Assembly: GCA_963704725.1 (NCBI GenBank)
Contig: OY969934.1
Location: forward strand, 480,001-544,000
DNA: 64,000 nucleotides
Direction: 5' to 3'
Source of the DNA: an uncultured Actinomycetes bacterium
Lineage (GTDB): Bacteria; Actinomycetota; UBA4738; HRBIN12
A model generated the notes under the pieces. It was not told where the DNA came from. It saw only the letters and a list, made by a program, of their open reading frames with translations, and searched no databases. The position numbers and the translations under genes are program-made. This document shows positions 5,823 through 21,142 of this stretch, piece by piece. Positions within the stretch are counted from its first letter, which is position 1, and the number at the start of each line of letters is the position of its first letter.

Positions 5823-5876
5823 CGAACGGTCGCCGCCGCTCGTAGTCTGCGGGGCAAGGTCAAGAATCGTTCTCAT
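5819..5876 (+). promoter_or_regulatory. Sigma-A-type promoter plus Zur/Fur-type box upstream of znuA
   Basis: TTGACG (5819-5824), 18 nt, TAGTCT (5843-5848); then CAAGAATCGTTCTCA (5861-5875), similar to the actinobacterial 7-1-7 Zur box TGAAAATNATTTTCA. Confidence 0.65.
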
Positions 5877-5905
5877 TCTCGAAACCCGACGACCGGAGAC
5901 CTGTC

Positions 5906-6817
5906 ATGTCGAGGGTCCGCGCGATCGCGGCGATCCTCGCGGTGTTGGCCGTGGGGGCGTCGGCCTGCGATCGGTCCTCGGGCGCGTCCGACGGCGGGCT
6001 CACGGTCGTGGCGAGCTTCTACCCCCTCGCCGTGGCGGTGGAGCGCTCGGCGGGCGACCTCGTCACCGTCGTGAACCTCACCCCCGCGGGCGTCGAGCCC
6101 CACGATCTCGAGCTCGCCCCGGACGATCTCGAGGCGGTCGTCACCGCGGATCTCGTCGTCTACCTCGGCGGCGGATTCCAGCCCGCCGTCGAGGACGGGG
6201 TGCAACAGGCCGAGGGGGCGACCCTCGACGCGCTACAGGCCGTGGGCCCGCTCCGTTCGCCGCCGCCGGGAGCGGGGGAGGCCGAGCTCACGGCCGATCC
6301 GCACGTGTGGCTCGACCCGGCACGATACTCGCGGATCGTGGGGGCGGTTGCGAACGCCCTCGCCCGGCTCGACCCGGCGCACGCCGACGCGTTCCGCTCG
6401 AACGCCGAGGCGTTCCAGGGGGATCTCTCGTCGCTCGACGCGGAGTTCCACGACGGGCTGGCGACCTGCGCGCGCCGGATGATCGTCACGAGCCACGCGG
6501 CGTTCGGCTACCTGGCCGAGTCCGACGACCTGGAGCAGGTGCCGATCGCGGGGCTCTCGCCCGACGCCGAGCCCAGCGCGCAGCGGATCGCGGAGCTCCG
6601 GACGCTCGTGCAGGAGCAGGGGATCACCACGATCTTCACCGAGGACCTGGTCTCGCCGAAGGTCGCCGAGACGCTGGCCGACGAGGCCGGCGTCGAGACG
6701 GCGGTCCTGAACCCGCTCGAGGGGCTGACGCAGGAGCAGGTCGACGCCGGGGACGACTACCTTTCCATCATGCGCGGCAACCTGGAGATCCTGAGGACGG
6801 CCCTTGACTGCACCTGA
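5906..6817 (+). CDS. znuA: Zinc/metal ABC transporter substrate-binding lipoprotein
   Basis: Lipobox ASAC; VEPHDLEL, DPHVWLDP, SHAAFGYL, LNPLEG. Confidence 0.9.
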   Translation: MSRVRAIAAILAVLAVGASACDRSSGASDGGLTVVASFYPLAVAVERSAGDLVTVVNLTPAGVEPHDLELAPDDLEAVVTADLVVYLGGGFQPAVEDGVQQAEGATLDALQAVGPLRSPPPGAGEAELTADPHVWLDPARYSRIVGAVANALARLDPAHADAFRSNAEAFQGDLSSLDAEFHDGLATCARRMIVTSHAAFGYLAESDDLEQVPIAGLSPDAEPSAQRIAELRTLVQEQGITTIFTEDLVSPKVAETLADEAGVETAVLNPLEGLTQEQVDAGDDYLSIMRGNLEILRTALDCT

Positions 6818-7628
6818 GCGGCACGCCGCCGCACCCGACCTGTCTCCGGCGACGCCGGTGAGGCGAGCCCCGGCCTCGCTCGGCGACGTCCTGGTGCGCG
6901 CCGAGGGCGTCACCTTCGCGTTCGGGCGTGCGCGCGTCCTCGAGGGCGTCGACCTCACGGTGCGCGCCGGCGAGTTCGTCGCGCTCGTCGGGCCGAACGG
7001 CTCGGGCAAGTCGACCCTGCTCCGCCTGCTGCTCGGGTCGCTGACGCCGTCCGGGGGATCCGTCCAGCTGCTGGGCGAGACCCCCTCCAATCTCGCCGAT
7101 CGGGCCCGGATCGGATACGTGCCGCAGCGGCCCGTGCTCGACTCGGAGGTGCCGGCCACCGTCGAGGAGATCGTGGCCGCGGGGCGTCTGGCCCGGCGCG
7201 GGTGGTGGCGACCGCTCCGACGAGAGGATCGCGAGTTCGTGAGCCACGCCCTCGAGTCCGTCGGCCTCGGCGACCTGGCGCGCAAGCCGCTCAACGAGCT
7301 GTCGGGTGGACAGCAGCAGCGCGCGTTCATCGCACGGGCGTTCGCCGGCGAGCCCGATCTGCTGCTCCTCGACGAGCCGATCGCCGGCATCGACGCCGAG
7401 TCGCAACGCCGGTTCCGGGACTCGCTCACCCACCTCATCGCCGAGCACGGCGCCGGCGTCCTGCTCGTCTCGCACGAGCTTTCGGCGGTGGCCCCGGAGC
7501 TCGACCGCGTCATCGTGCTGAAGCGGCGCGTCCTGTTCGACGGGCCGCCGTCGGAGCTGGCCGCCTCGGGCGTGAGCCTGGGGATCCACCGCGACGACCT
7601 CCCGCTCTGGCTCGAGGGGCTGCGCTGA
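6804..7628 (+). CDS. znuC: Zinc/metal ABC transporter ATP-binding protein
   Basis: GPNGSGKST, IGYVPQR, LSGGQQQR, LLLDEP, VSHEL. Confidence 0.9.
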   Translation: MTAPERHAAAPDLSPATPVRRAPASLGDVLVRAEGVTFAFGRARVLEGVDLTVRAGEFVALVGPNGSGKSTLLRLLLGSLTPSGGSVQLLGETPSNLADRARIGYVPQRPVLDSEVPATVEEIVAAGRLARRGWWRPLRREDREFVSHALESVGLGDLARKPLNELSGGQQQRAFIARAFAGEPDLLLLDEPIAGIDAESQRRFRDSLTHLIAEHGAGVLLVSHELSAVAPELDRVIVLKRRVLFDGPPSELAASGVSLGIHRDDLPLWLEGLR

Positions 7629-8482
7629 TGCCCTGGCCGATCAACCTGCTGCCGTACCCCTTCGACCTGACGTTCATGCAGCGCGCGCTCGTCGCGGGCC
7701 TCGTCGTGGGCATCTTCGCCCCGATGATCGGGACGTTCGTCGTCCAGAAGCGGCAGTCGTTGATCGGCGACGGGATGGGGCACCTCGCGTTCGCCGGCGT
7801 CGGCGTCGGGTTCGTCGCGGGCTTCTGGCCGGTATGGGGTGCGCTCGTGGTGGCCGTCGCGGGCGCGCTCGCACTCGAGTGGCTGCGGGCGCGCCGCGCG
7901 GCGTCGGGCGATCTTGCGCTGGCGCTCTTCTTCTACTCGGGCATCGCGCTCGGGGTCGTGCTCGTCAACCTCGGCGGAGCCGGAGGCCCGAACGTGCTCG
8001 TCTATCTGTTCGGCCAGCCGCTCACGGTCAACGACTCCGAGATCGGCGTCATCGTCGGCCTCGGAGCCGTGATCGTCGTGGCGATGCTGGTGCTCCGCCG
8101 CGTGCTGTTCGCCGTCGTCACCGACGAGGAGTGGTCCCGCGTGGCCGGCCTCCCCGTGGGGTTCCTGAACGCCGTCCTCGCCGTCCTCGTCGCGGTCTCG
8201 GTCGTGGCGGCCATGAAGATCGTCGGTGTCCTGCTGATCGCGGCGATGATGGTCCTTCCGGTCGCCGGCGGGCAGCTCCTGGCGCGTTCGTTCGCCGGCA
8301 CGCTCAGATGGAGCGTCGCGATCGGAGTCGTCTCCGTGGTCGCCGGGCTCGCGTCCTCACGGATCTGGGACCTCGCGCCGAGTGGGATGATCGTGCTCAT
8401 CGCGGCCGGGGCGTTCGCCGTGACGGCGGTCGTGAAGCGCGGCGCGGCGTTTCGACTGAGTGCGGAGGGATCGGAAGCGTGA
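7628..8482 (+). CDS. znuB: Zinc/metal ABC transporter permease
   Basis: FMQRALVAG, LIGDGMGHLAFAG, YLFG, KIVGVLLIAAMMVLP; TGATG overlap with znuC. Confidence 0.9.
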   Translation: MPWPINLLPYPFDLTFMQRALVAGLVVGIFAPMIGTFVVQKRQSLIGDGMGHLAFAGVGVGFVAGFWPVWGALVVAVAGALALEWLRARRAASGDLALALFFYSGIALGVVLVNLGGAGGPNVLVYLFGQPLTVNDSEIGVIVGLGAVIVVAMLVLRRVLFAVVTDEEWSRVAGLPVGFLNAVLAVLVAVSVVAAMKIVGVLLIAAMMVLPVAGGQLLARSFAGTLRWSVAIGVVSVVAGLASSRIWDLAPSGMIVLIAAGAFAVTAVVKRGAAFRLSAEGSEA

Positions 8483-8931
8483 GCGACGTCCACGCCGTCG
8501 TCGAGGAGCGCCTGCGCGCGGTCGGCCAGCGGTACACCGCCCAGCGCAGGGCGTTGATCGACGCGCTCCGGCGCGCGGGCAACCCTGTCCCGATCCCCGA
8601 CCTCGCGAACGCGCGTCGAGGGCTCCCGCAGAGCTCGGTCTACCGGAACCTCGCCCTGCTGGAGCAGGCCGGCGCCGTGCATCGCGTGCTGACGGGAGAG
8701 GAGTTCGCCCGGTACGAGCTCACCGAGGATCTCACCGAGCACCACCACCATCTCGTCTGCCGCAGCTGTGGAGCGGTCGAGGACGTCACGGTGACCTCGA
8801 GCTTCGAGCGTCAGGTGGCGCGAGCCGTCACGGAGATCGCCGACCGCACGGGGTTCTCGGCCGCCAGCCACCGGCTCGACCTGTTCGGGACGTGCCGGAG
8901 CTGTGTCGAGCGCCGTCAGGCCGTGAGGTAG
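8479..8931 (+). CDS. zur: Fur family transcriptional regulator, probably Zur
   Basis: YTAQRRAL, SSVYRNL, HHHHLVCRSCG, C-terminal CRSC; last gene of the znu operon. Confidence 0.82.
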   Translation: MSDVHAVVEERLRAVGQRYTAQRRALIDALRRAGNPVPIPDLANARRGLPQSSVYRNLALLEQAGAVHRVLTGEEFARYELTEDLTEHHHHLVCRSCGAVEDVTVTSSFERQVARAVTEIADRTGFSAASHRLDLFGTCRSCVERRQAVR

Positions 8932-9677
8932 GGCCGGTCCGGACGAGAGACGGAGGCGATCCCGCCGGCGTTCACGATGACCTCGCGGCCGATCGGGTAG
9001 ATCGTCCCGGTCACCTCCACCCACTCGTTGTCCTCGAACGCTCCCGGCGTGACGTTGACCACGCGGACCTGGGCGATCGTCGCGTCGGCCACGCAGCACG
9101 TCACGACGTACCGGGTGAGGAAGAACTCGTCCGCGGGCGTGTCGGCGTAGCGCGTGACGAACCCGACGAAGTCCACGGACTCGCCGGCGCGCTTGGCCAG
9201 GGCGCGCTCGCCGTCCGGCGACGTCTGCCCTGCGGCGACGTCCACGAGCGTGAGCTCGCCGCTCGCGATGTCCCCCGCCGAGGACGCGATCCCGGAGCCG
9301 GTGAACCCTGACCGCTTGTTGGCGGAGAACGAGCCCAGCGTGGCCGGCGGCAGCACCATGACCAGGAGGACGGGCACGACCATCGCTCCCATGATCAACA
9401 GCTCGTGCCGACGGATCGGCTCGGGCCGCCGGGCCCGGGCGGAGGCCAGCCGGCCGAGCGCGGCGGCCGACAGGATCACGGCCGCCACGGGCACCACCCA
9501 CTCCGTGCGGGTCGAGAGGTAGAACGCTCGGCGTCCCGAGAGCAGGAGGAACCAGAAGAGCGTCGCCCACGCGCCGAGGACGACGGCGCCCGCCACCCGA
9601 GCCGGGCTCCACACGCGGGGGAGCGCGGTCTCGGTGATGGGCCGGGGTGCGTCCCGGGCGACGACGGCGTCGGTCAT
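8916..9677 (-). CDS. TIGR03943/DUF1980 family putative permease subunit (YcgQ-like)
   Basis: Three N-terminal TMs; FVGFV, LTRYVVTCCVADA, WVEVTG, C-terminal PDRPYL. Confidence 0.85.
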   Translation of the reverse strand: MTDAVVARDAPRPITETALPRVWSPARVAGAVVLGAWATLFWFLLLSGRRAFYLSTRTEWVVPVAAVILSAAALGRLASARARRPEPIRRHELLIMGAMVVPVLLVMVLPPATLGSFSANKRSGFTGSGIASSAGDIASGELTLVDVAAGQTSPDGERALAKRAGESVDFVGFVTRYADTPADEFFLTRYVVTCCVADATIAQVRVVNVTPGAFEDNEWVEVTGTIYPIGREVIVNAGGIASVSRPDRPYLTA

Positions 9678-10678
9678 CCGAACAGCACCCCGATCCACAG
9701 CGTGCCGACGAGCGTGGTCGCGGTCACCCCGATGAGGACCGCGCGCACGAACCCACGGCGGAACGTCCCGCCGTACAGCGCCACCAGCTTCAGGTCGACC
9801 ATCGGTCCGAACACGAGGAACGCCAGCTGCGCGGCGGGGCCGAACTGCACGAACGACGCCGCAACGAACGCGTCCGACTCGGAGCACAGGGACAGCACGC
9901 CGGCGAGGGCCATCATCACGAGCAGCGACACGACCGGCACGCCGGCCACGCCGGTCAGGAGCGACGTCGGCAGGAACGTCTGGATCGCCGCGGCGACGGT
10001 CGCGCCGAGGATCAGGTAGCGGCCCATGAACAGGAAGTCGTTGCCGAGGTGGACGAAGAACCGCCGCCACCGGGCCTCGGGCCGGCCGAGCTCGGTCAGG
10101 TGCTCGTGTGCCTCCTCCGGGTTCGGCTTGAGGAGCTCGTCCTTCGTCCGGGTGCCCACCAGCCAGCCGACCGCGACCGCCACGAGGAACCCGAGCACGA
10201 AGCGTCCCCCGATCATCGTCCACTCGGTCGACCGCCCTCGGTACGCGAAGAACGTGGACGCCACGACGACCGGATTGAGCACCGGCGCGGCGAGCATGAA
10301 CGTCACCGCAGCCGACGGCATGAGCCCGCGCTGCGCCAGCCTCCGAGCCACCGGCACCGAGCCGCACTCGCAGATCGGGAAGGCCAGACCGGCCAGGGCG
10401 GCCGCCGGGAGCTGCAACGGACGGGGGAGCCGGCCGAGCCTCTCGAGCGTGCCGATCGGCACGAAGATCTCGACGAGCGATGCGGCCAGGGCGCCGAGCA
10501 TCACGAACGGCAGCGCCTGGATCAGCAGCGAGCCGAAGATGACGAGGTACGTTCGGACCCACTCGACCCGCTGCGGGTCGAGCAGCCGCAGGGCGACGGC
10601 GCCGAGGACGAGGAGCCCGGCGGCGAGCACGGCGCCGCGCGTCGAGACCGTTCGGGATCTGGGGGCGGCGACGGCCAT
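9674..10678 (-). CDS. DUF318 family permease (YcgR/ArsP-like)
   Basis: QALPFVMLG, FPICECGSVPVARRL, FMLAAPVLNP, SLCSESDAFVA, FGPMVDLK. Confidence 0.9.
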   Translation of the reverse strand: MAVAAPRSRTVSTRGAVLAAGLLVLGAVALRLLDPQRVEWVRTYLVIFGSLLIQALPFVMLGALAASLVEIFVPIGTLERLGRLPRPLQLPAAALAGLAFPICECGSVPVARRLAQRGLMPSAAVTFMLAAPVLNPVVVASTFFAYRGRSTEWTMIGGRFVLGFLVAVAVGWLVGTRTKDELLKPNPEEAHEHLTELGRPEARWRRFFVHLGNDFLFMGRYLILGATVAAAIQTFLPTSLLTGVAGVPVVSLLVMMALAGVLSLCSESDAFVAASFVQFGPAAQLAFLVFGPMVDLKLVALYGGTFRRGFVRAVLIGVTATTLVGTLWIGVLFG

Positions 10679-12006
10679 CAGCAGTACCTCGCGAACGAGA
10701 CGGCGAAGCCCTGGAACGCGTCCGCCATCATCTCCCGCCCGTCCTCGTCCGTCACGCCGAGCAGCGCGTCCACGGCGACCTGACCGGTGATCGCCGCCTC
10801 GGTCAGGACCCGCTGGTCGAGGAAGAGCCCTCCTGGCACCGTCGCCGCGACGGCGGGAGCGACGCCGGGCACGGCGTCCTCGGCCGCGGCGATCAGGCCC
10901 GTGTCCGGGACGGCGTCCGCGCGGCGTTCGGACGTTCCCGTTCCCGCCACCGCGACGAGCACGGAGCCGCCGATCGCCGCGCGGGCGGCGTCCACGATCC
11001 GCTCGGTCCGGCGGTCGAGCGCTCGCACGTCGCCGTCGAGCACCACGCCGAGGACGTCCGGGATCTCGTCGCCGATCCCCGGCGCCTCGAGCAGCGAGCG
11101 CGCCGCGCCGACGGCCCGCTCTCCGCGGGCCACGACGACGCGGTCGGTGTCGTGCTGCGCGTACCACGCACCGCCGATCAGGCCGCGGTCGAGGTCATCG
11201 GTGGCGACGAGCGAGACGATCGAGCGCTGACCGGTGGCGTCATCGAGGTCCTCGGCGAGCGTGGCGATCACGGGAACCGGCGCTCCCTCGCCGAACGCCG
11301 GAACCACCTGACCCGCGTCGTTGCGGACGAACGAGCCGGTCACCCCGTGTTGGTGCGGCAACCCGCCGGTGCCGATCGTCGCGAGCGTGGCCGTCGGGTC
11401 GAGGGGGAGCGACCCCGTCTCGCCCCTCAGCGTGCCGGCCCCGTCGCGGAGCAGCGATCGAAGGAACGGCCAGTCCTTCGGCGCGCCCTCGAGATCGATG
11501 GTGCCGACGCCCTTCCACGCCACGAGGAGGACGAGGCCCGGGGCTTCACCACTCGCGACGCCGTCGATCGCCGTGCCGGAACGCACGTCGGGGAAGGGGC
11601 GCTCGAAGCCGATCGCGTCGCTCGCGGTCGGGGCGATCCGGTCGAGGGTGACGCCACCCGGGACCGGTGCACCGGCCGCGACGCCCGCGCCGGCGAACAC
11701 GATCGGGACGCGAGTGTCCGCTGAGCCCCGAACGGCCGGCCACGGCGCCGGCAGGCCGGTCCCACCGGTCGCCGAGAACACCGGCACTCGGTTCGACACC
11801 GCGAGGACGTCGGGTGACCGGCCCTCGCGGAAGCCGGCGGCGATCTCCCGCTTCAGGGCTTCGGGCAGGGGACAGAAGGGCGTCCGGGCGACGCCCTCGG
11901 AGCCCGAGTCGCAGGATCTCCCGGCGCAGACGGCGTGCAGGACCCCGGCGGGGATGCCGACGACGGCGAGCACGAGCAGGAGGATGAGCAGGCGACGACC
12001 GGACAC
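10678..12006 (-). CDS. Exported/membrane-anchored, catalytically degenerate paralog of the permuted alkaline-phosphatase-family proteins
   Basis: Same motif order as its neighbours (RSPDV..VPIVFAGAGV..TLDRIAPT..LVLLVAW..WPFLRSL..ATIGTG..HGVTG), but the metal ligands and nucleophile are replaced. Confidence 0.75.
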   Translation of the reverse strand: MSGRRLLILLLVLAVVGIPAGVLHAVCAGRSCDSGSEGVARTPFCPLPEALKREIAAGFREGRSPDVLAVSNRVPVFSATGGTGLPAPWPAVRGSADTRVPIVFAGAGVAAGAPVPGGVTLDRIAPTASDAIGFERPFPDVRSGTAIDGVASGEAPGLVLLVAWKGVGTIDLEGAPKDWPFLRSLLRDGAGTLRGETGSLPLDPTATLATIGTGGLPHQHGVTGSFVRNDAGQVVPAFGEGAPVPVIATLAEDLDDATGQRSIVSLVATDDLDRGLIGGAWYAQHDTDRVVVARGERAVGAARSLLEAPGIGDEIPDVLGVVLDGDVRALDRRTERIVDAARAAIGGSVLVAVAGTGTSERRADAVPDTGLIAAAEDAVPGVAPAVAATVPGGLFLDQRVLTEAAITGQVAVDALLGVTDEDGREMMADAFQGFAVSFARYC

Positions 12007-12065
12007 GGATCTCCACGGTAACGCCGGGTCGCTGGGTTGTCGTTCTCGGTTCCGTGGTGTTTCGT

Positions 12066-13814
12066 ATGCCGCTCGTGACCCTCTCGCGGCGTGGTGTCGG
12101 ACTGCTCGCCGCCTTGGTCGTGGTCGCCGCCGCGTGCACGGGAGACGACGGCGGCTCGGCGGCGCCCGAACGATCGGCCCGGCCGTCCGCTCCGCCGGCC
12201 TCCGCGCCGTCCTCTCCGTCGGGCTCGGCCTCGGGGCAGAGCCCCGGAGCGACGCCGGCCGTCGCCACCGGCGACCTCGTCGACGTGGCGTGCTCGTTGC
12301 CGCACGAATGGCTCCTGCGGACCTGGAGGGGCGATCGCGCCGACCGCAGCGCCGAGCTGCAGTTCCTCCCCGACGAGCCGAACTTCGTCGGGTCGGGCCT
12401 CCCTCACGTGGGGCCGTGGCCGTACGCGCAGGACGTTCCGATGTTCTGGTACGGCCCGGGGCACATCGCCCCGGCCGGCGTCGTCGACCGTCCGGTCACC
12501 CTCGCGGGGATCGCCCCCACGGAGGCCGAGCTGCTCGGCTTCCCGTTCCGAACGCCCGACGGGACGCCGATGAGCGAGGCGCTCGCCGGCAACCCGGCGC
12601 CGCCGAAGCTGATCGTGACGATGGTGTGGGACGCCGGCGGCCGCAACGTGCTCGCGCGGTGGCCGAAAGAGTGGCCGTTCCTGAAGTCGCTGATCTCGGA
12701 GGGCGCCTGGTACGAGCACGCCACCGTCGGGACGTCGCCGACGAGCACGGCGCAGACGCACGCCACGATCGGGACCGGGCTGTTCCCCGACCATCACGGC
12801 ATCGTGGGGCACCGCCTGCGCATCGGCGGCCAGATCACGACGCCGTGGCAGCGCGGGCCGACCTACCTGATCGCGCCGACGCTCGCGGACCTGTACGACG
12901 AGGCCATGGGGAACGAACCGGTCGTCGGCGAGCTCGGAACCGTGAGCATCCACCTCGGCATGCTGGGGCACGGCTCGATGTGGGGAGGCGGGGACCAGGA
13001 CATCGCCGCGGTGCGCGAGGTGGTCGGCGCCGACACCCTCGGAGCCGAGGGGTTCGAGTGGAACCTCACGCCGAGCCTGCAGCCGTACTACCGGTTCCCC
13101 GACTACCTCAACGACGTCCCGGGGTTCGACCAGGACGTGCGCGACGTCGACGCCGCCGACGGGCGGATCGACGGCAGGTGGCGGACGAACGACATCGCGC
13201 AGCTGCTGTCGGGGTTCGACACGCCGGCGCGCATCCCGTACCAGACGCGGGCCCTCGAGGAGCTGATCACACGCGAAGGGTTCGGGCAGGACGACGTCCC
13301 GGACCTCCTGTTCGTGAACTACAAGATGATCGACTACATCAGCCATGTGTGGACGGTGAACAGCCCCGAGATGAAGGACGCCGTCGCGGACCAGGACCTG
13401 GCCCTGCAGGAGCTCGTGGGGTTCCTCAACCAGACCGTCGGCGAGGGTCAGTGGGCGCTCGTCCTCACGGCCGACCACGGCTCGATCCCCGACCCCGAGG
13501 TGAGCGGGGCGTTCCAGATCTCGGCCACCCCGATCGCGAACGGCATCAACGCGACGTTCGACACGGACGGCGATGACACGCGCATCGTGCAGGTCATCCA
13601 GCCGACGCAGATCTTCGTGAACACCGACGAGCTCGAGCAGAACGGGCACACGCTCGAGGAGCTGAGCTCCTGGATCATGGGCCTCACGAAGGCCGACACG
13701 GCCCAGCCCGGCGTCGTCGTCCCGCCCGACGAGGCCGGCGACCGGGTGTTCCAGGCTGCGTTCCCCTCCTCCCTGCTCGACGAGCTGCCGTGCCTGCCCG
13801 AGGCCCATCGGTGA
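12066..13814 (+). CDS. Alkaline phosphatase/NPP-superfamily lipoprotein (PafA-like, circularly permuted), copy 1
   Basis: Lipobox AAAC; PKLIVTMVWD, PTSTAQTHATIGTG, DLLFVNYKMIDYISH, LTADHG, N-terminally relocated PHVGPWPYAQDVPMFWYGPG..TLAGIAPT. Confidence 0.88.
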   Translation: MPLVTLSRRGVGLLAALVVVAAACTGDDGGSAAPERSARPSAPPASAPSSPSGSASGQSPGATPAVATGDLVDVACSLPHEWLLRTWRGDRADRSAELQFLPDEPNFVGSGLPHVGPWPYAQDVPMFWYGPGHIAPAGVVDRPVTLAGIAPTEAELLGFPFRTPDGTPMSEALAGNPAPPKLIVTMVWDAGGRNVLARWPKEWPFLKSLISEGAWYEHATVGTSPTSTAQTHATIGTGLFPDHHGIVGHRLRIGGQITTPWQRGPTYLIAPTLADLYDEAMGNEPVVGELGTVSIHLGMLGHGSMWGGGDQDIAAVREVVGADTLGAEGFEWNLTPSLQPYYRFPDYLNDVPGFDQDVRDVDAADGRIDGRWRTNDIAQLLSGFDTPARIPYQTRALEELITREGFGQDDVPDLLFVNYKMIDYISHVWTVNSPEMKDAVADQDLALQELVGFLNQTVGEGQWALVLTADHGSIPDPEVSGAFQISATPIANGINATFDTDGDDTRIVQVIQPTQIFVNTDELEQNGHTLEELSSWIMGLTKADTAQPGVVVPPDEAGDRVFQAAFPSSLLDELPCLPEAHR

Positions 13815-15520
13815 GGCCGCGGGGCCCCGCGCTCCTGCTGGCCGCGGCCCTCGTCGCGGCGGCCTGCACGTCGGGGGGCGATCGAGGCGCCGACGACGGC
13901 TCGAGCCCCACCTCCGCCCTTCCCGCCTCGGCGAGCCCGGTCCGGCCCTCCTCCACCACCCCCGCGGAGCCCGAGCCCGGCGCGCTCGAGCAGGCGGCGT
14001 GCGCGATGCCGCACCGCGAGCTCGTTCGCATCTGGCGCGGGACCGATCCGCAGCGCTCCGGCCAGATCGTGGTCGTGCCGCAGGAGCCGAACTTCCTCGG
14101 CTCGAACTTCCCGCACTCGGGCCCCTGGGACTACCTGCAGGACGTTCCGTTGCTCTGGTACGGGCCGGGCATCGTCCCGGCGCTCGGGTCCGTCGACCGG
14201 CCCGTGACGCTCGCCTCGGTCGCGCCGACCGAGGCCAAGCTGCTCGGCTTCGACTTCTCGGCCCCGGACGGCCACGCCCTTCCCGAGATCCCCGCCCCCG
14301 CGACGGCGCCGCCGCTGATCGTGACGTTCGTGTGGGACGCCGGCGGACGCAGCGTCCTCGACTCCTTTCCGCAGGACTGGCCGGTCCTGCGCTCGCTGAT
14401 CGACGGCGGGGTCTGGTACGAGCACGCCAGCGTGGGCTCGAGCCCCTCGATCACGCCGGCCACGCATGCGACGATCGGCACCGGCGCCTACCCCATGCAC
14501 ACCGGGCAGACGGACGCCGAGTTCCGCATCGGCCCGGACCTCGTGCGGGCCGGCCAGCTCGGCCCGGTGCTGTTGATGGAGCCCACGCTGGGGGATCTGT
14601 ACGACCGTGCGATGGGCAACGCGCCGCTCGTGGGGGATCTGGCCAGCGTGACCTGGCACCTCAACATGGCCAGCCACGGCTCGCTGTGGGGCGGCGGAGA
14701 CCGGGACATCGCGGTGCTCCGCACGCCCAGCATCTCCGGCGGGAACGAGGGCGCCGAGGGCAACCAGTGGAACCTCCAGGGCAAGAACCGGCCCTACTAC
14801 GAGTTCCCCGAGTACGTGAACGACCTGCCGCCGCTGTCGGCATACACGGACGCCGTCGACCGGGCCGACGGTGCGATCGACGGCATGTGGCGCGACAACT
14901 CGATCCAGCAGTACGAGGACGGGTGGGCCACGCCCGCCCGGATCCCGTACCAGGAGCGGATGATCGAGGAGGTCGTGGCGCGCGAGGGCTTCGGCGACGA
15001 CGACGTGCCCGACCTCCTGTTCATCAACTCGAAGGCGATCGACCACGCGAGCCACATCTGGAGCGTGAACAGCCCCGAGATGCAGGACATGCTGTCGTGG
15101 CAGGACGAGGCGCTCGGGCAGTTCATCCGGTTCCTCGACGACGAGGTGGGAGCGGGACGGTGGGTCCTGCTCCTCACGGCCGACCACGGCGCGCAGTTCG
15201 ACCCGCAGGTCTCGGGCGCGTTCCAGGTCACCCCGACGCACCTCGAGCAGGACCTGAACGAGGCCTTCCCGTCGTCGACGGACCAGTCGGTGTTCCAAGC
15301 CGTGCGCACGAGCCAGATCTACGTGAACGAGACGACGATGGAGGCGAGCGGGTACACGTTCGAGGAGATCTCGCGGTTCGTCCTGGACTACACGAAGGCC
15401 CAGGGCGCGACCGACCCCGCCACGGTCCCCGCCGACCAGCGCGACGACCGGGTCTTCTCCGCGGCGTTCCCCATCGACCTGCTTCCCACGCTGACCTGCC
15501 TGCCCGAGGCTCGGGAGTGA
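13811..15520 (+). CDS. Alkaline phosphatase/NPP-superfamily lipoprotein (PafA-like, circularly permuted), copy 2
   Basis: GTGA overlap with copy 1; lipobox AAAC; RSGQI..PHSGPWDYLQDVPLLWYG, IVTFVWD, PSITPATHATIGTG, AIDHASH, TADHG. Confidence 0.88.
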   Translation: MRPRGPALLLAAALVAAACTSGGDRGADDGSSPTSALPASASPVRPSSTTPAEPEPGALEQAACAMPHRELVRIWRGTDPQRSGQIVVVPQEPNFLGSNFPHSGPWDYLQDVPLLWYGPGIVPALGSVDRPVTLASVAPTEAKLLGFDFSAPDGHALPEIPAPATAPPLIVTFVWDAGGRSVLDSFPQDWPVLRSLIDGGVWYEHASVGSSPSITPATHATIGTGAYPMHTGQTDAEFRIGPDLVRAGQLGPVLLMEPTLGDLYDRAMGNAPLVGDLASVTWHLNMASHGSLWGGGDRDIAVLRTPSISGGNEGAEGNQWNLQGKNRPYYEFPEYVNDLPPLSAYTDAVDRADGAIDGMWRDNSIQQYEDGWATPARIPYQERMIEEVVAREGFGDDDVPDLLFINSKAIDHASHIWSVNSPEMQDMLSWQDEALGQFIRFLDDEVGAGRWVLLLTADHGAQFDPQVSGAFQVTPTHLEQDLNEAFPSSTDQSVFQAVRTSQIYVNETTMEASGYTFEEISRFVLDYTKAQGATDPATVPADQRDDRVFSAAFPIDLLPTLTCLPEARE

Positions 15521-17211
15521 GGCGTCGCCGTTCCGCGGCGGCGCTGCTCGCGGTGGCCGTCGTCGCCGCGGCGTGCACCGGCGACTCGCCGGGTCCCGGC
15601 CCGTCGCGGACGCCCGGCGCGCCGACGAGCCCTCCGCCCCCGACCAGCGACCGGGAGCTGGCGCGGACCGCGTGCCGCAACGTCGACCACGACGTCCTCC
15701 TGCGGACCTGGCACGGCGTCAGCCTGGACCGCAGCGGCGACGTCCAGATCATCCCCGTGGAGCCGAACTTCGTGAACGGCGGGCTGACCCACGCCACGCC
15801 GTTCGACTACACGCAGGACGTCCCGCTCTTCCTGTACGGGCCCGGCTACGTGAGGTCCGGCGTCTACGACGAGCCGATCACGCTGGCCGACCTCGCGCCG
15901 ACGACGGCTGCGCTGCTGAAGTACCGGTTCGACGCGCCGGACGGGAGCCCCCAAACCCAGGCGCTCCTCCCGGCGGCCGACCGCCCGCTCCCCGCGCTCG
16001 TCGTGACGGTCATCTGGGATTCGGGCGGAGACGATGTTCTTGATCGATGGCCCCACAGCTGGCCCTACCTTCGCTCGCTCCGCCAGCGGGGAGCGTGGTT
16101 CACCAACGTCACCGTGGGCTCGTCCCCGTCGAACACGCCGACCGGCCACGCGACGATCGGCACGGGGGCGTTCCCGATGCGCAACGGGTTCGTCGACGAG
16201 TACCTGCGGGTGAACGGCCGCATCCAGAAGCCGAACGCGAACGGTCCGGCGTTCCTGAACGTCCCCACTCTGGCCGACCTCTACGACGCGGCGAGGGACA
16301 ACGCGCCGAAGGTCGGGGCCATCGCGACGCTCGCGGCCCACATCATGATGATGGGCCACGGCTCGGAGTGGGGCGACGGCGACCGGGACCTCGCCGTGAC
16401 GCGGGAGAAGGAGTTCGCGGCCACGGCCGGCGCCGAGAGCCTGACCTGGAACCTGACGAGCGCGATGGCACCCTTCTACGACCTGCCCGGCTACGTGAAC
16501 GACCTCCCTCCGCTCTCCGACTACGTCGACGCGATCGATCGCCTGGACGGCCGGCTCGACGGCAAGTGGCGCACGAACGACATCGCCCAGCTCTCCAACG
16601 GGTTCGACACCCCGGCACGCACGCCGTTCCAGGAGACGCTGATCGAGGCCGTGATCCAGCGCGAGGGGTTCGGCGCCGACGACGTTCCCGACCTGCTGTA
16701 CCTCAACTACAAGGCCATCGACACGATCGGTCACCTGTTCAGCGCGGACGGGGTCGAGATGTCGGACGCGGTGAAGGTGCAGGACGAGACGCTGCGCCGG
16801 CTGATCGACTTCCTCGATCAGACCGTCGGCCGGGACCGATGGGTCATGGTGCTCACCGCCGACCACGGGACCCAGCGCGACCCCACCGCCTCCGGCGCGT
16901 TCATGATCGACATCCACAAGCTGGAGGACGGCCTCAACCGCACGTTCGACGGCGATGGCGACGGGGTCCCGGCGATCCAGAAGGTCCGCCCCACCGAGGT
17001 CTGGATCGACACCGACGAGCTCGCCGAGAACGGGTTCACCCTCGAGCAGGTCTCGCGCTGGTTCCTCGGCCTCACGCAGCAGGAGACCTACAAGAACCAG
17101 CACGTCCCGGCGGCCGGGCACGAGGACGATCCGGTCTTCGCCGCCGCGTTCCCGTCGTCTATCCTGACGGCGCTCCCGTGCCTTCCCGAGGCCCGCGGGA
17201 GCTCGTCGTAG
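15517..17211 (+). CDS. Alkaline phosphatase/NPP-superfamily lipoprotein (PafA-like, circularly permuted), copy 3
   Basis: GTGA overlap with copy 2; lipobox AAAC; RSGDVQII..THATPFDYTQDVPLFLYG..TLADLAPT, VVTVIWD, PSNTPTGHATIGTG, AIDTIGH, TADHG. Confidence 0.88.
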   Translation: MRRRRSAAALLAVAVVAAACTGDSPGPGPSRTPGAPTSPPPPTSDRELARTACRNVDHDVLLRTWHGVSLDRSGDVQIIPVEPNFVNGGLTHATPFDYTQDVPLFLYGPGYVRSGVYDEPITLADLAPTTAALLKYRFDAPDGSPQTQALLPAADRPLPALVVTVIWDSGGDDVLDRWPHSWPYLRSLRQRGAWFTNVTVGSSPSNTPTGHATIGTGAFPMRNGFVDEYLRVNGRIQKPNANGPAFLNVPTLADLYDAARDNAPKVGAIATLAAHIMMMGHGSEWGDGDRDLAVTREKEFAATAGAESLTWNLTSAMAPFYDLPGYVNDLPPLSDYVDAIDRLDGRLDGKWRTNDIAQLSNGFDTPARTPFQETLIEAVIQREGFGADDVPDLLYLNYKAIDTIGHLFSADGVEMSDAVKVQDETLRRLIDFLDQTVGRDRWVMVLTADHGTQRDPTASGAFMIDIHKLEDGLNRTFDGDGDGVPAIQKVRPTEVWIDTDELAENGFTLEQVSRWFLGLTQQETYKNQHVPAAGHEDDPVFAAAFPSSILTALPCLPEARGSSS

Positions 17212-17228
17212 CGGGAGCAGGGGATCGT

Positions 17229-20200
17229 ATGGCGCTCACCAAGGACCGTCCCGACCAGGCCGTCCGCGTCTCGGAGGCCGAGGCCCGGGGGTTCCTGGGA
17301 CGGCCGGTCGTCTTGGCCGTGGCCATCGCGGTGGTGCTCCTGGCGTTCGGCTGGACCTTCCTGCGCGACCCCTCGGTCAGCGCCCCCACGCGCGACCCGG
17401 CCTGGTACACGTGGCGATCGAACCTGATGATGAACGACGACCCCGGCCTCATCGCGGGCGACTGGGGGCCGTTCTCGATGTTCGGCGGGGGCTATCGCGT
17501 CTCGGTCCCGCTCTACGGCTCGATCCTTCAGCGGGTGGCCGGGATCGACCTGTACACGTTCAGCGCGTTCATGATGGTGGGGGTCCCCGTGCTCACCGGG
17601 CTGGCTCTCGGTGCGTTCGCGTGGCGTCGCTCCCGCGATCCGTTGCTGTTCCTGCTCGTCATGCTCGCGACGGCGGCCCTGTTCATGACGACGCCCTACG
17701 TCGGCTACCTCGACAACATCACGATCCTGTTCTTCCTGTCGATGATCCTGGCGTTCTTCGAACCCGGGCGGACGTCGTGGGGCGCGAGGACCGCGCTCTT
17801 CCTGCTCGGCATCGTCGCGGCGTACACCCATCCCACGACGTGCGTCATCTTCGGCGCGTCGCTGATGGCCGTGTTCGGCCTCCGCGTCCTGACGAGCCGG
17901 TTCCACCTCGGCCCCGCCCTGAAGGAGCTCGGGCCGTCGCTGATGTCGGTCGGGTTCGGGATGATCCTCGGGCTCGGCTCGTGGCTCGCGTCGCCGTGGG
18001 GCGTGAAGGGGTCGCTCGCCGACGCGGCCCTTCCTCCGCCGTACACGCGAGAGGTCTTCATGAAGCGCCTCGACGGCTGGGTGAGCTCACTGCAACCGGC
18101 GATCGTCGTGCCGCTCGTGGTGCTGGCGATCGGCTGGACGATCTGGCGGGCCCGGCGGGATCACGAGCGATCCGACGGGTTCGGGACGATCTCGACGATG
18201 CTGCTCCTGCCCTTCCTCGGAACGCTCGGGTGGATCGCGGGGGCGACCTATCCCTACTACCGGTTCATGAACGCCACCCTCGCGCTCTTCCCGCTCGCGG
18301 GGCTCGGCGCGTACGTCGCGATCAAGTGGCTGTGGCGACGCGACGGCCTGGCGAAGGTCGCAGGCCTCGTCGCCTCGCTGGTGATCGTCGGGTCGTTCGG
18401 CTTCATCTGGGTCAACGGGCGGGACGCGGCGCAGTGGGCCAACCCCGACAACCAGTGGATCGACCAGCCCACCCGAACCGCGCTCTCGGCGGCGCGCGCG
18501 GTCGTCGAGCACTCGCCCCCGGACTCGCCGGTCGTCTTCGTCGTGAACTTCGGCGACACCTACCAGTCCTACGGATGGGCGAAGACCTTCACGAACGTCT
18601 CGCGGACCGGCCTGCCCGGCGAGGACGTGAAGCGCTCCATGACCTACTTCGGCGCCGTCGACGACCTGCTCGCGAACCGGCCGACCGCGTTGACGGATCC
18701 GACCTACAACAAGATGTCGCGGGGCTTCCTCCGCGAGCTGACCGCCCTCCGCGAGGAGTACACGGGCCCGCCGGTCGTCCTCCTCGTCCGCCAGTTCAAC
18801 CAGGGCACCGTGAACGAGGACCTGCTCGACTCGGGCGATCCGACCCTGATGAAGATCGGCGACGACATCGCCGTCGTCACGGGGCCGGAGCTCGCGACGC
18901 CGTCACCGGCCGCCCTGGAGGACGCTCGCGCGTCCGAGGCCGCCGTGGCCGCCTTCTACGCGGACCACCCGGGGATCTTCGGGAACCTCGGGCACACGCT
19001 GTTGGTGGTCCTCGCCCTGGTCCTGCTCCTGGTCGTCCCCGGCCTGCTCGCGGCGGACTACTTCGAGCTGAACGACACGTGGCTCCGGGTCTCGCTCGTG
19101 CCGGGGATCTCGATCGCGCTCACCGTGCTGGCGGGAGTGATCGTCGTCGGCGTGCACCGGGCGCCTTTCGGGACCGGCGACGGGTGGGCCTCGCTCGGTC
19201 TGGCCACCGTGTTCGCCGGAGGTCTCCGCGTGGGCGCTCGGCCGATCCAGCGGACCATGGCGGCCGTCGGCGACTTCTTCAACCGGATGTTCTCCACGTT
19301 CTCCAACGCGGACTTCGCGGCGCTGATGGGCGTGCAGTTCCTGGTCATGGCGGCGGACGGCCTGATCCGGGGGTCGATCGCCAAGTCGATCGCGTTCGGA
19401 GGCCAGGAGGGTTTCGACATCACGACGGTGCCGTCAGCCGACTACCTCCTGAAGGTGGTGCTGGCGCTCTACGTGCCGTACACGTTCCTGTCGCCGTTCA
19501 TCGGCGTCGTCATCGACCGGTTCGAGCGGCGGCGCGTGCTGGCCGTCTCGAGCATCGTCACCGCCGCGACCACGGCGGTCCTCGCCGTCGCGATCATGCT
19601 CCCCCTCGGCGACGACACGTCCGAGGGCAAGGTGGCGGCGACCGCCGGCCTGGTCCTGGCGATGCTGGTCATGCAGGCCTGCGTGCGGATCATGCTCGCG
19701 GTCAAGTCGGCCGCCCTGCCCGGCGTCGTGCACGGGAAGGACCTGATGAACGGCAACGGTCTGTCCCAGGCCGGCGGCGCGCTCTTCCAGGTGCTCGGGG
19801 CGGGGGTGGCGTTCGGGGCCGGCGGGGCGCTGCCGTCCTGGGCGGTCGTGATCGTCGGCGGCGGGACGCTCGTGGTGTCGGCGTTCGTGGCGATGCGGAT
19901 CCAGCGCATGGAGATCACGAAGCACGTGACGTCGTTCGCCGAGGAGGCCAAGCGCGTCGTCAAGGACATCGCGAACGGCGTCCGGGAGGTGGCGCAGCGC
20001 CCGGCCGCGGCGCTCGGGCTCACCGCGTTCCAGATGCTCCGGTACCAGTTCTGGGGGTTCGCCCTCGGCGTGTTCGCCCTGTACGCGCGCTCCCTCGTCG
20101 AGAGCGGCGACGTCGACTCGATCGCGCTCGCCATCGTGGGCGGAGGCGGGTTCGTGGGCGGCGCGCTCGGCATGGTGCTCGCGCAGCGGTGGAAGGACCG

Positions 20201-20609
20201 CGTGCCTCCCGTCCGGCTGCTCCTCGGGTCGATGGCGCTCCTCGGCGGGAGCGCGCTCGTCCTCGGCTTCTGGGTGAGCCTGGCCGGCTTCACCCTCCTG
20301 CTGTTCTTCGGGTTCTTCGCGTTCTTCCTCGGCAAGATCTCCGCCGACACGATCCTCCAGCAGGCCATCCGAGACGATTTCCGGGGCCGCGCGTTCGCGC
20401 TGTTCGACATCGCGTACAACCTCGGGTTCATCGTCCCGGCGCTCATCCTCGTGCTCGTGTGGAACGACGACCGGGCGGGCGTCACGCTGATCGCTTCCGG
20501 CGCGGTGTTTCTCGCGCTGACGGCGGGCATCGCCCGCTGGGCTCGGGCCATCCGAGCGGAGCTCGCCCCGCAGGACGACCTCGCCGACGACGCCCCGGAG
20601 GCGCGGTGA
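17229..20609 (+). CDS. Large polytopic membrane protein (1126 aa): GT-C-like glycosyltransferase region fused to a C-terminal MFS transporter
   Basis: After TM1, an external loop with RDPAWY; about 11 TMs including AYTHPTT; a soluble domain; then from about 19280 a 12-TM MFS with PYTFLSPFIGVVIDRFERRRVL and DDFRGRAFALFD. Confidence 0.72.
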   Translation: MALTKDRPDQAVRVSEAEARGFLGRPVVLAVAIAVVLLAFGWTFLRDPSVSAPTRDPAWYTWRSNLMMNDDPGLIAGDWGPFSMFGGGYRVSVPLYGSILQRVAGIDLYTFSAFMMVGVPVLTGLALGAFAWRRSRDPLLFLLVMLATAALFMTTPYVGYLDNITILFFLSMILAFFEPGRTSWGARTALFLLGIVAAYTHPTTCVIFGASLMAVFGLRVLTSRFHLGPALKELGPSLMSVGFGMILGLGSWLASPWGVKGSLADAALPPPYTREVFMKRLDGWVSSLQPAIVVPLVVLAIGWTIWRARRDHERSDGFGTISTMLLLPFLGTLGWIAGATYPYYRFMNATLALFPLAGLGAYVAIKWLWRRDGLAKVAGLVASLVIVGSFGFIWVNGRDAAQWANPDNQWIDQPTRTALSAARAVVEHSPPDSPVVFVVNFGDTYQSYGWAKTFTNVSRTGLPGEDVKRSMTYFGAVDDLLANRPTALTDPTYNKMSRGFLRELTALREEYTGPPVVLLVRQFNQGTVNEDLLDSGDPTLMKIGDDIAVVTGPELATPSPAALEDARASEAAVAAFYADHPGIFGNLGHTLLVVLALVLLLVVPGLLAADYFELNDTWLRVSLVPGISIALTVLAGVIVVGVHRAPFGTGDGWASLGLATVFAGGLRVGARPIQRTMAAVGDFFNRMFSTFSNADFAALMGVQFLVMAADGLIRGSIAKSIAFGGQEGFDITTVPSADYLLKVVLALYVPYTFLSPFIGVVIDRFERRRVLAVSSIVTAATTAVLAVAIMLPLGDDTSEGKVAATAGLVLAMLVMQACVRIMLAVKSAALPGVVHGKDLMNGNGLSQAGGALFQVLGAGVAFGAGGALPSWAVVIVGGGTLVVSAFVAMRIQRMEITKHVTSFAEEAKRVVKDIANGVREVAQRPAAALGLTAFQMLRYQFWGFALGVFALYARSLVESGDVDSIALAIVGGGGFVGGALGMVLAQRWKDRVPPVRLLLGSMALLGGSALVLGFWVSLAGFTLLLFFGFFAFFLGKISADTILQQAIRDDFRGRAFALFDIAYNLGFIVPALILVLVWNDDRAGVTLIASGAVFLALTAGIARWARAIRAELAPQDDLADDAPEAR

Positions 20610-21142
20610 TGCAGAGACTCTCCTCGCCCGATCCCGTCTCCGAGCCGGCCGCGTATCAGCAGCACCTGCTCGGCCTCCTCGGGCAGGACGATCCGGCCGA
20701 GGTGCAGGCCGGCGCGGTGGAGGCCTGGCGCGCGCTCGTCGACGAGACCGGGGACCGGCTGCGAGACCGCCCCGAGCCCTCCGAGTGGTCGGTGCTGGAG
20801 TGCCTGGGGCACGCCACAGACGCCGAGCTCGTCGTGTCGGGCCGCTACCGGTGGATCCTCGCGCACGACGAGCCGCCCCTGATCGGCTACGACCAGGACC
20901 TGTGGGTGGACCGCCTCCGCCACCACGAGGACGACCCCGACGAGCTCCAGGCGTTCCTGGGCGCGCTCCGATCGGCCAACCTCGCGCTGTGGCGCAAGAC
21001 GCCGGAGGGGGACCGGGCCCGCGTCGGCGTGCACGCCGAGCGGGGACCGGAGAGCTACGAGCTCACGTTCCGGCTGCTCGCCGGGCACGACCGCTTCCAC
21101 CTGGCGCAGGCGCGCCGCGCGCTCGACGCCGTCTCCGCCTAG
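20609..21142 (+). CDS. DinB/YfiT family protein
   Basis: RPEPSEWSVLECLGH, PPLIGYDQDLW, GHDRFHLAQ His triad; TGATG overlap with the upstream gene. Confidence 0.85.
   Translation: MQRLSSPDPVSEPAAYQQHLLGLLGQDDPAEVQAGAVEAWRALVDETGDRLRDRPEPSEWSVLECLGHATDAELVVSGRYRWILAHDEPPLIGYDQDLWVDRLRHHEDDPDELQAFLGALRSANLALWRKTPEGDRARVGVHAERGPESYELTFRLLAGHDRFHLAQARRALDAVSA

Follow-up and report, generated by a model that had tools for sequence, protein, structure and literature searches.

How exported zinc enzymes of monoderm bacteria obtain their metal is largely open, a gap that the available text of PMC10550928 states alongside its manganese case, in which MeeF and MeeY, which are TerC proteins, metalate LtaS, an exoenzyme of the alkaline phosphatase (AP) superfamily. 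In gacHIJKL, the system for the Group A carbohydrate, a donor synthase made of a family 2 glycosyltransferase (GT2) and DUF2304, a flippase, a GT-C transferase and an AP-superfamily phospho-transferase are brought together (10.1101/180810, 10.1101/337519, each as far as its text is available). For a streptococcal permease pair, ScfA/ScfB, the available part of PMC5584981 reports fitness and acid-stress phenotypes and assigns no function. A Shewanella relative of DUF318 is linked to zinc resistance in the accessible text of 10.1101/072470, and ArsP is an organoarsenical exporter according to the available portion of PMC7176098. Here we describe a locus in 64,000 nucleotides of DNA from an uncultured Actinomycetes bacterium (contig OY969934.1, positions 480,001 to 544,000; "the window" denotes this whole stretch). 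Three genes encoding an inactive AP paralogue (pseudo-AP), a DUF318 permease and a TIGR03943 subunit form its module 1. Three AP-family enzymes (AP1–3) and a GT-C-like protein fused to a major facilitator superfamily (MFS) transporter form module 2, and znuACB-zur lies next door. Our preferred explanation, to which we give a probability of roughly 0.4, is that module 1 acts as an accessory complex loading zinc into glycan-tailoring surface phosphoesterases, beside a glycan-tailoring module.

The original prediction placed four permuted AP-family proteins at this locus, one of them an inactive paralogue, and profile, structural model and hhalign all agree with it. AP1–3 share 47–53% identity and each scores above the Pfam cut-off for Phosphodiest. 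The profile built from 116 homologues aligns with PafA as three blocks in a changed order (profile positions 10–106 on PafA 435–533, E 1e-11; 112–187 on 14–91; 326–478 on 261–417), and the AlphaFold2 model, with a predicted local distance difference test (pLDDT) score of 96, aligns to PafA structure 5tj3 only from residue 108 onwards (Z 27.1, root-mean-square deviation 3.7, 367 residues aligned). Therefore the circular permutation is real, and the last ~100 residues of PafA, including the distal His ligand, are placed first. Foldseek matches the model to 5tj3 at E 3e-11, and the model has the alkaline-phosphatase alpha/beta core fold. Against NF042991, the PafA model, the APs score 82–103 bits for a cut-off of 650, their chain order being non-canonical. 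A literature search combining circular permutation with alkaline phosphatase found nothing on a permuted AP family.

The catalytic residues of the permuted enzymes are strongly conserved. D189, D423, H427, D470 and H471 are present in 164/164 homologues and H114 in 163/164, and the nucleophile position T228 is Thr in 158 and Ser in 6. We mapped the PafA contact positions through alignments with 5tj3/5too and PhoK. N100, K162 and R164 of PafA contact phosphoryl oxygens (PMC10629569, in its available part); at the equivalent positions, 18 of the 164 homologues have the N, one has the K and none the R. In all 164 a Lys precedes the DxxxH Asp by three residues (K420 in AP1), at a position where PafA has Ala, and His296 is retained in 144. 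Based on this conservation, AP1–3 are predicted to be intact zinc enzymes with a remodelled pocket, and their activity would be diester hydrolysis or phospho-transfer and not monoester hydrolysis of the PafA type. This pocket bears on an alternative that we regard as unlikely, namely that the APs scavenge phosphorus at the surface as phosphatases whose number grew by duplication, with a gene order that is mostly inherited and with unrelated jobs for the trio and the GT-C/MFS protein. The closest solved relatives of the APs are indeed the monoesterases PafA and PhoK, and up to 12 AP matches occur per genome, many of them scattered, both of which favour scavenging; the near-complete loss of the three phosphoryl contacts argues against it.

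Further members of the family bear on the same question. In a representative protein search AP1 retrieved 1321 proteins at E up to 1e-30; among the matches listed (150 of 1321), 70 are full length and include a distant group that is likewise permuted. Distant permuted relatives retain N100 in 32/70 and R164 in 19/70 cases, again in line with scavenging. This group (P0195–P0276, 23–31% identity to AP1) keeps the new Lys, mostly N100 and often R164, and lacks the Cys pair described below. It seems from these sequences that, where the permuted family began, the new lysine may have replaced K162. Some distant permuted members are labelled Sericytochromatia and Bacteroidota (two of the ten clusters looked up carried a name), and confinement of the family to Actinomycetota is rejected. 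Three other full-length proteins, P0155 (L155), P0157 and P0159, have degenerate sites unlike those of the pseudo-AP clade and represent further independent pseudo-enzymes.

Closer to the locus, AP1 has matches in 110 of 121 genomes of the class (92 strong; 18 only via a distant stand-alone clade). A phylum search gave matches in 54/401 genomes, all from this class or from a family labelled f8 (25/26), and in 0/342 others; homologous records bear labels of Actinomycetota metagenome-assembled genomes. In a FastTree phylogeny the three paralogues sit in separate clades, each with a family-7 member, which suggests that they have old, distinct substrates. A fifth permuted AP of the genome, outside the window (G000:C1:2577442-2580108), combines transmembrane (TM) segments at its N-terminus with a twin-arginine motif in its interior and is part of the stand-alone clade, which is kept in many genomes without the cluster and shows a twin-arginine motif in 13 of 20 members. 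AP1–3 themselves carry lipoboxes. The strict lipobox pattern occurs in only 64/163 AP homologues, which is an undercount, and the notion that all cluster APs are Sec lipoproteins is unsupported.

Hhalign places pseudo-AP in colinear alignment with the permuted APs (100%), and its predicted fold is of the AP type (pLDDT 91), while its match to Phosphodiest lies below the cut-off (E 0.007). In the hhalign comparison the distal His is gone, Asp is replaced by Lys, Thr by Pro and DH by T-gap, the DxxxH segment is deleted and a lid of ~70 residues is missing, leaving neither the metal ligands nor the nucleophile of an active enzyme. Four Cys are invariant (C27, C32, C45 and C442). Pairwise dN/dS against each of four relatives is ~0.34–0.42; pseudo-AP is a maintained pseudo-enzyme under purifying selection, and no decaying gene. 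Its ancestry lies among the APs and yet it is tied to the permease operon, a further point against unrelated, scavenging phosphatases.

The order pseudo-AP > DUF318 > TIGR03943 is found in 46 of 49 genomes whose fetched loci contain pseudo-AP; the remaining three loci ended within 250 nt, thus 46/46 with room have it. These 46 genomes belong to six families (27 f1, 10 f2, 3 f4, 1 f5, 1 f7, 4 f8), and the trio is a fixed unit. Within the class, pseudo-AP and a TIGR03943 orthologue are each present in 81/121 genomes (G104, a weak paralogue match, was dropped from the latter count): both occur in 79, neither in 38, and a single one in 2+2. Pseudo-AP is present in 81/92 genomes with cluster-type APs and 0/29 without, and 17 of the 18 genomes that have only the weaker-matching stand-alone clade lack the tested trio genes. 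TIGR03943 is found in 21/26 f8 genomes. In three loci of f8, a distant family, a second pair heads the series DUF318 > TIGR03943 > AP > MFS > AP > GT-C on one strand, with each match beginning within ~50 nt of the preceding stop. Co-location of AP genes, permease pair and GT-C plus MFS in other genomes, a test set beforehand, was thus borne out even in these rearranged loci.

The arrangement recurs across families, far beyond chance, and AP, MFS and GT-C-like genes stay linked in f2 and f8 although their order, strand and fusion state have changed, which the scavenging alternative does not readily accommodate. Each of the three also persists alone. Where a locus has no trio, zur abuts AP1 (L010, L012, L016, L062), and in L047 and L059 the fetched 20 kb contain a trio and no AP. 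The locus consists of two modules that can separate and of the neighbour znuACB-zur, and separate loss of the modules is what scavenging would allow.

The permease proteins were assigned by family models. TIGR03943 here scores 101.8 bits (cut-off 88.8) and the adjoining DUF318 protein 179.6 bits against PF03773 (cut-off 32.3); identity with the SO_0444-family Cu/Zn exporter or with SaoE is rejected, at 64.1 and 59.3 bits for cut-offs of 300 and 325. For the outer domain of TIGR03943, PDB and Atlas searches gave no relative, and a literature search by the name TIGR03943 found no paper. All three trio proteins carry invariant Cys, and the permuted APs often have Cys at their new ends (C76 in 127/164, C576 in 132/164), a pair that probably forms a staple between them. 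One could picture the trio as a thiol-disulfide relay that forms this C76–C576 pair, with no metal route at all. We consider this very unlikely: neither a CxxC motif of the thioredoxin type nor a corresponding Pfam match was found in the trio, the APs that follow TIGR03943 directly in f2 and f8 are of a type that sits in a clade whose representatives lack the Cys pair (judged by tree position and motif type, uncounted), and the neighbours of the pair at other loci are metal-related.

Those other loci indicate what the pair may do in general. TIGR03943 is above cut-off in 81/401 genomes of the phylum, many of which have no permuted AP; B. subtilis and S. elongatus also pass. We inspected 20 loci of the pair outside the AP cluster, hand-picked after the nearest 1.5 kb of most had been seen, and scanned 117 of their 183 open reading frames (ORFs). 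Znu or Fur genes adjoin the pair in 7/20, and a 5'-nucleotidase (3), M48 protease (3) or M14 carboxypeptidase (2) in 8/20, mostly as the next gene; 5/20 have neither Znu/Fur nor a zinc enzyme. The background frequency of such neighbours was 0.3% and 0.7% of G000 positions, counted from close homologues only and an underestimate. The 5'-nucleotidase, M48 and M14 families use zinc, and the neighbouring nucleotidases and M14 proteins start like signal peptides.

Several of these arrangements are worth recording individually. Beyond the window, the genome itself has another DUF318/TIGR03943 pair of generic type (G000:C1:814836-818573), divergent from the genome's only close 5'-nucleotidase homologue, and the same arrangement recurs in L178, L179 and L197. 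In other Actinomycetota families, M14 zinc carboxypeptidases or M48 proteases stand on the same strand directly upstream of the pair (L190:6595-7734, L191:2736-3875, L183:2456-3595, L184:2125-3264). Additional neighbours are PhoU with a two-component system (L180:782-3773), a PrsA-type foldase (L189:6769-7908) and a nickel superoxide dismutase (L183:5680-6360).

The Znu/Fur neighbours lend weight to an importer, the alternative that we judge somewhat unlikely. Here the DUF318/TIGR03943 pair would import zinc or else a small phosphate ester; pseudo-AP would serve it as the binding subunit on the outside, an inactive enzyme retained because of its pocket and catching AP products. Coupling of pseudo-AP to the permease rather than to the APs, and the trios of L047 and L059, agree with this, as does placement of ArsP/DUF318 in the TOG superfamily with NiCoT and TSUP (PMC7176098, available portion). 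Nevertheless, pseudo-AP has lost every metal ligand and the lid segment, and the DUF318 relatives described in the accessible texts cited above are tied to efflux or zinc resistance. Regulation also points away from import. A Fur/Zur-type palindrome lies upstream of znuA in 18/23 loci, and these 18 regions, this locus included, provided the matrix; the site at window 5858–5878 is the best genome-wide (24.9, next 14.7). Upstream of pseudo-AP, none of 50 regions scored above 7.0, versus 23.7–33.7 for the 18 matrix-building znuA sites; among the GT-C upstream controls 1/63 reached 23.5. Zur control of the trio is rejected on this 0/50 result, and the trio is therefore probably not Zur-repressed, as judged from these upstream sequences. 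The missing box fits a supply role better than starvation uptake.

The original prediction had also included znuACB-zur. The genes are present and convergent with the trio as it described; they are a neighbour mostly in one family, and no Zur-type box lies upstream of the trio. Znu genes occur in the trio's fetched locus in 19/27 f1 genomes (two of the other eight had no room) and in 2/19 genomes of other families, one of these being merely a weak ATPase match beside a Fur gene. It appears that znuACB-zur is an ordinary zinc importer, next door mainly in one family, that does not regulate either module.

Module 2 is set among glycan genes. The label "GT-C-like" for residues 1–680 of the fusion is based on language-model features and topology, with no Pfam or PDB match: the part has ~9 hydrophobic/TM segments and a motif APTRDP in its first outer loop, whose Asp is at least 90% conserved (61 rows), and its Atlas features are 0.96–0.97 similar to clusters with DUF6541 (18%), PMT_2 (56%) and AftA_N (76%). 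No Pfam family matched more than one of 61 members, and a search against PDB sequences gave no real match. GT-C and MFS parts read through as one gene in 52/56 class loci and are separate genes in f8. A neighbour scan of 77 of 131 candidate ORFs found an epimerase and GT2 after the cluster in 6/7 f2 genomes, and Wzy and Wzx after GT-C in 5/6 f8 loci; DUF2304-GT2 fusions lie upstream in 3/3 f8 loci tested. The glycan context that had been proposed for this locus is thus supported by these neighbours. A 41% homologue of the f8 fusion lies far from the cluster in the present genome (G000:C1:1814029-1815078). In f3 a GT-C-like gene is present and the permuted AP absent; this gene (L064:9265-12800, L066:6680-11487) has no MFS part and is flanked in 2/2 loci scanned by PF04185 phosphoesterases. 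PF04185 is a member of the AP clan, and it is possible that these enzymes replace the permuted APs there.

Sequence and gene order establish the anatomy, the permutation, the intact as opposed to dead sites, the fixed trio, the linkage through rearrangement and the absence of a local Zur box, and the preferred zinc-loading explanation builds the following mechanism on them. Module 2 would tailor or turn over a cell-surface glycan: the MFS protein may move a lipid-linked sugar donor across the membrane, the GT-C-like enzyme may transfer the sugar outside, and the surface-anchored, permuted PafA-fold bimetallo-zinc enzymes, with sites intact by sequence, would act on phosphate esters there. The widespread DUF318/TIGR03943 pair most likely carries zinc, or a metal like it, to the outside via its Cys motifs. 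In this lineage, as the genetic coupling suggests, it would have recruited a dead paralogue of its clients as third subunit, and pseudo-AP most likely docks the apo-enzyme at the permease.

A wider version of this explanation, by analogy, makes DUF318/TIGR03943 (ScfAB, YcgRQ) a general zinc-loading route for exported enzymes, recruited beside AP-fold, 5'-nucleotidase, M14 and M48 clients. Here the dead client paralogue would be a membrane-anchored adaptor, an extracytoplasmic counterpart of CCS/SOD1, serving a permuted new-lysine family that edits a surface glycan. We put this forward as a rather unlikely proposal.

A number of observations weigh against zinc loading by module 1. Pseudo-AP and TIGR03943 are both missing from ten of the 92 genomes that carry cluster-type APs, pseudo-AP has an orthologue in only 16/25 f8 genomes (E below 1e-120), and the near-complete f8 genomes G397 and G169 have several APs and no TIGR03943 match. 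No APs lie near GT-C/MFS in 9 f1 loci (selected for that absence) or in 5 f4 loci; with those ten genomes, this led us to abandon the view of the locus as one obligate system. Co-presence overstates the link, since neighbouring genes are lost jointly and related genomes do not count as independent; synteny across family 1 also extends to neighbours with no relation to the locus (hydrolase, EamA, AlaX). A loose RR motif occurs in 52/163 cluster APs, some of which may be exported already folded. The selection of the outside loci and the scanning of 117 of their 183 ORFs count here as well: "zinc enzyme" was defined after looking, and the eight cases represent three enzyme families in related genomes.

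The features are collected in Table 1. GC content of the window is 71–74%, and genes were picked by codon-position GC (GC3) and family matches. All eleven genes and DinB lie on GC3-favoured frames, with Pfam/NCBIfam library matches to ZnuA, ABC_tran, ABC-3, FUR, TIGR03943, ArsP_1/DUF318, Phosphodiest, MFS_1 and DinB_2. Direct reading of the window confirmed the gene content, operon directions, overlaps and 17-nt gap that had been reported for it. In module 1 the junctions are a TGATG overlap at 10678 (pseudo-AP/DUF318) and ATGA at 9674–9677 (DUF318/TIGR03943), and the convergent TIGR03943 and zur share 16 nt (8916–8931). The divergent pseudo-AP and AP1 are separated by 59 nt (12007–12065). GTGA overlaps join AP1 to AP2 (13811–13814) and AP2 to AP3 (15517–15520); 17 nt lie between the AP3 stop (17211) and the GT-C/MFS ATG (17229), and a TGATG overlap at 20609 leads into DinB. 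DinB, which the original prediction counted in the right-hand operon, is coupled here but is not conserved with the module: it follows MFS in only 9/40 loci and is rejected as a member. A sigma-70 scan gave 0 promoter-like and 2 terminator-like sites, which is chance level. A secreted-type phytase with a PKD domain is encoded 4 kb downstream of the cluster (window 24506–26533, minus strand), a neighbour that the scavenging alternative can claim. Our tallies include genomes G053, G063, G022, G032, G108, G139, G183 and G250, which are flagged unpublished; no conclusion rests on any of them singly.

Table 1. Features of the locus in window coordinates
Feature	Position	Strand	Remarks
Zur/Fur-type palindromic box, upstream of znuA	5858..5878	.	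matrix score 24.9; neighbour, outside module
znuA, zinc-binding lipoprotein	5906..6817	+	PF01297 E 1e-76; neighbour
znuC, ABC ATPase, start codon uncertain	6804..7628	+	PF00005; neighbour
znuB, ABC-3 permease	7628..8482	+	PF00950; neighbour
zur, Fur-family repressor	8479..8931	+	FUR match; neighbour
TIGR03943/DUF1980 permease subunit, 253 amino acids (aa)	8916..9677	-	3 TM + C-terminal domain, invariant CCxAD; module 1
DUF318 (ArsP_1, PF03773) permease, 334 aa	9674..10678	-	CECG and LCSE motifs, both conserved; module 1
pseudo-AP, 442 aa, permuted PafA fold with a membrane anchor at its N-terminus	10678..12006	-	Zn ligands and nucleophile all lost; module 1
AP1, 582 aa lipoprotein, predicted circularly permuted PafA-fold Zn enzyme	12066..13814	+	H114, D189, T228, D423, H427, D470, H471, K420; module 2
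AP2, 569 aa, AP1 paralogue (51%), intact site	13811..15520	+	module 2
AP3, 564 aa, AP1 paralogue (50%), intact site	15517..17211	+	module 2
GT-C-like glycosyltransferase (~1-680) fused to MFS transporter (~685-1126)	17229..20609	+	conserved first-loop Asp56; module 2
DinB_2 protein	20609..21142	+	translationally coupled here; conservation with module absent

The locus offers the DUF318/TIGR03943 pair a specific, testable job, with a defined client family and a dedicated pseudo-enzyme partner. It also provides a natural permuted PafA fold without K162/R164 and with an invariant new lysine, against which members of an exceptionally well-studied enzyme superfamily can usefully be compared, and it suggests that uncultured Actinomycetota have a surface glycan not yet described.

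Among described proteins, PafA and PhoK(SPAP) (5tj3, 3q3q; NF042991) share with the APs the fold (Z 27.1), six Zn ligands and a Thr nucleophile. Unlike PafA, the APs here are permuted, lack K162 and R164, have mostly lost N100 and carry an invariant Lys in place of PafA's Ala. The permease pair resembles ScfA/ScfB of S. pyogenes, SMU.746/747 of S. mutans and YcgR/YcgQ of B. subtilis in its DUF318 and TIGR03943 families and in their order; we infer the families of ScfAB because of their ycgR/ycgQ homology and the match of a B. subtilis control to TIGR03943. In contrast to those pairs, a pseudo-enzyme gene heads the operon here in a fixed order, and a local Zur box is absent. CCS is a SOD1-like copper chaperone, a dead paralogue that recognises apo-SOD1 and hands over metal via Cys; it differs in being cytosolic, in using copper and in having no permease, and serves as an analogy only. 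MeeF/MeeY provide a model of how such a route may work, with a membrane transporter supplying metal to an exported AP-superfamily enzyme, although they belong to an unrelated transporter family, handle Mn rather than Zn, work at the Sec translocon and have no pseudo-enzyme partner. Finally, the same kinds of parts as in gacHIJKL surround the f2 and f8 loci, an analogy drawn without Gac sequence comparison. GacH has eleven TM helices and Mn, whereas the APs here resemble PafA, have a single anchor and carry ligands of the Zn type; an MFS protein, not Wzx, is the candidate flippase, and no rhamnan genes were seen.

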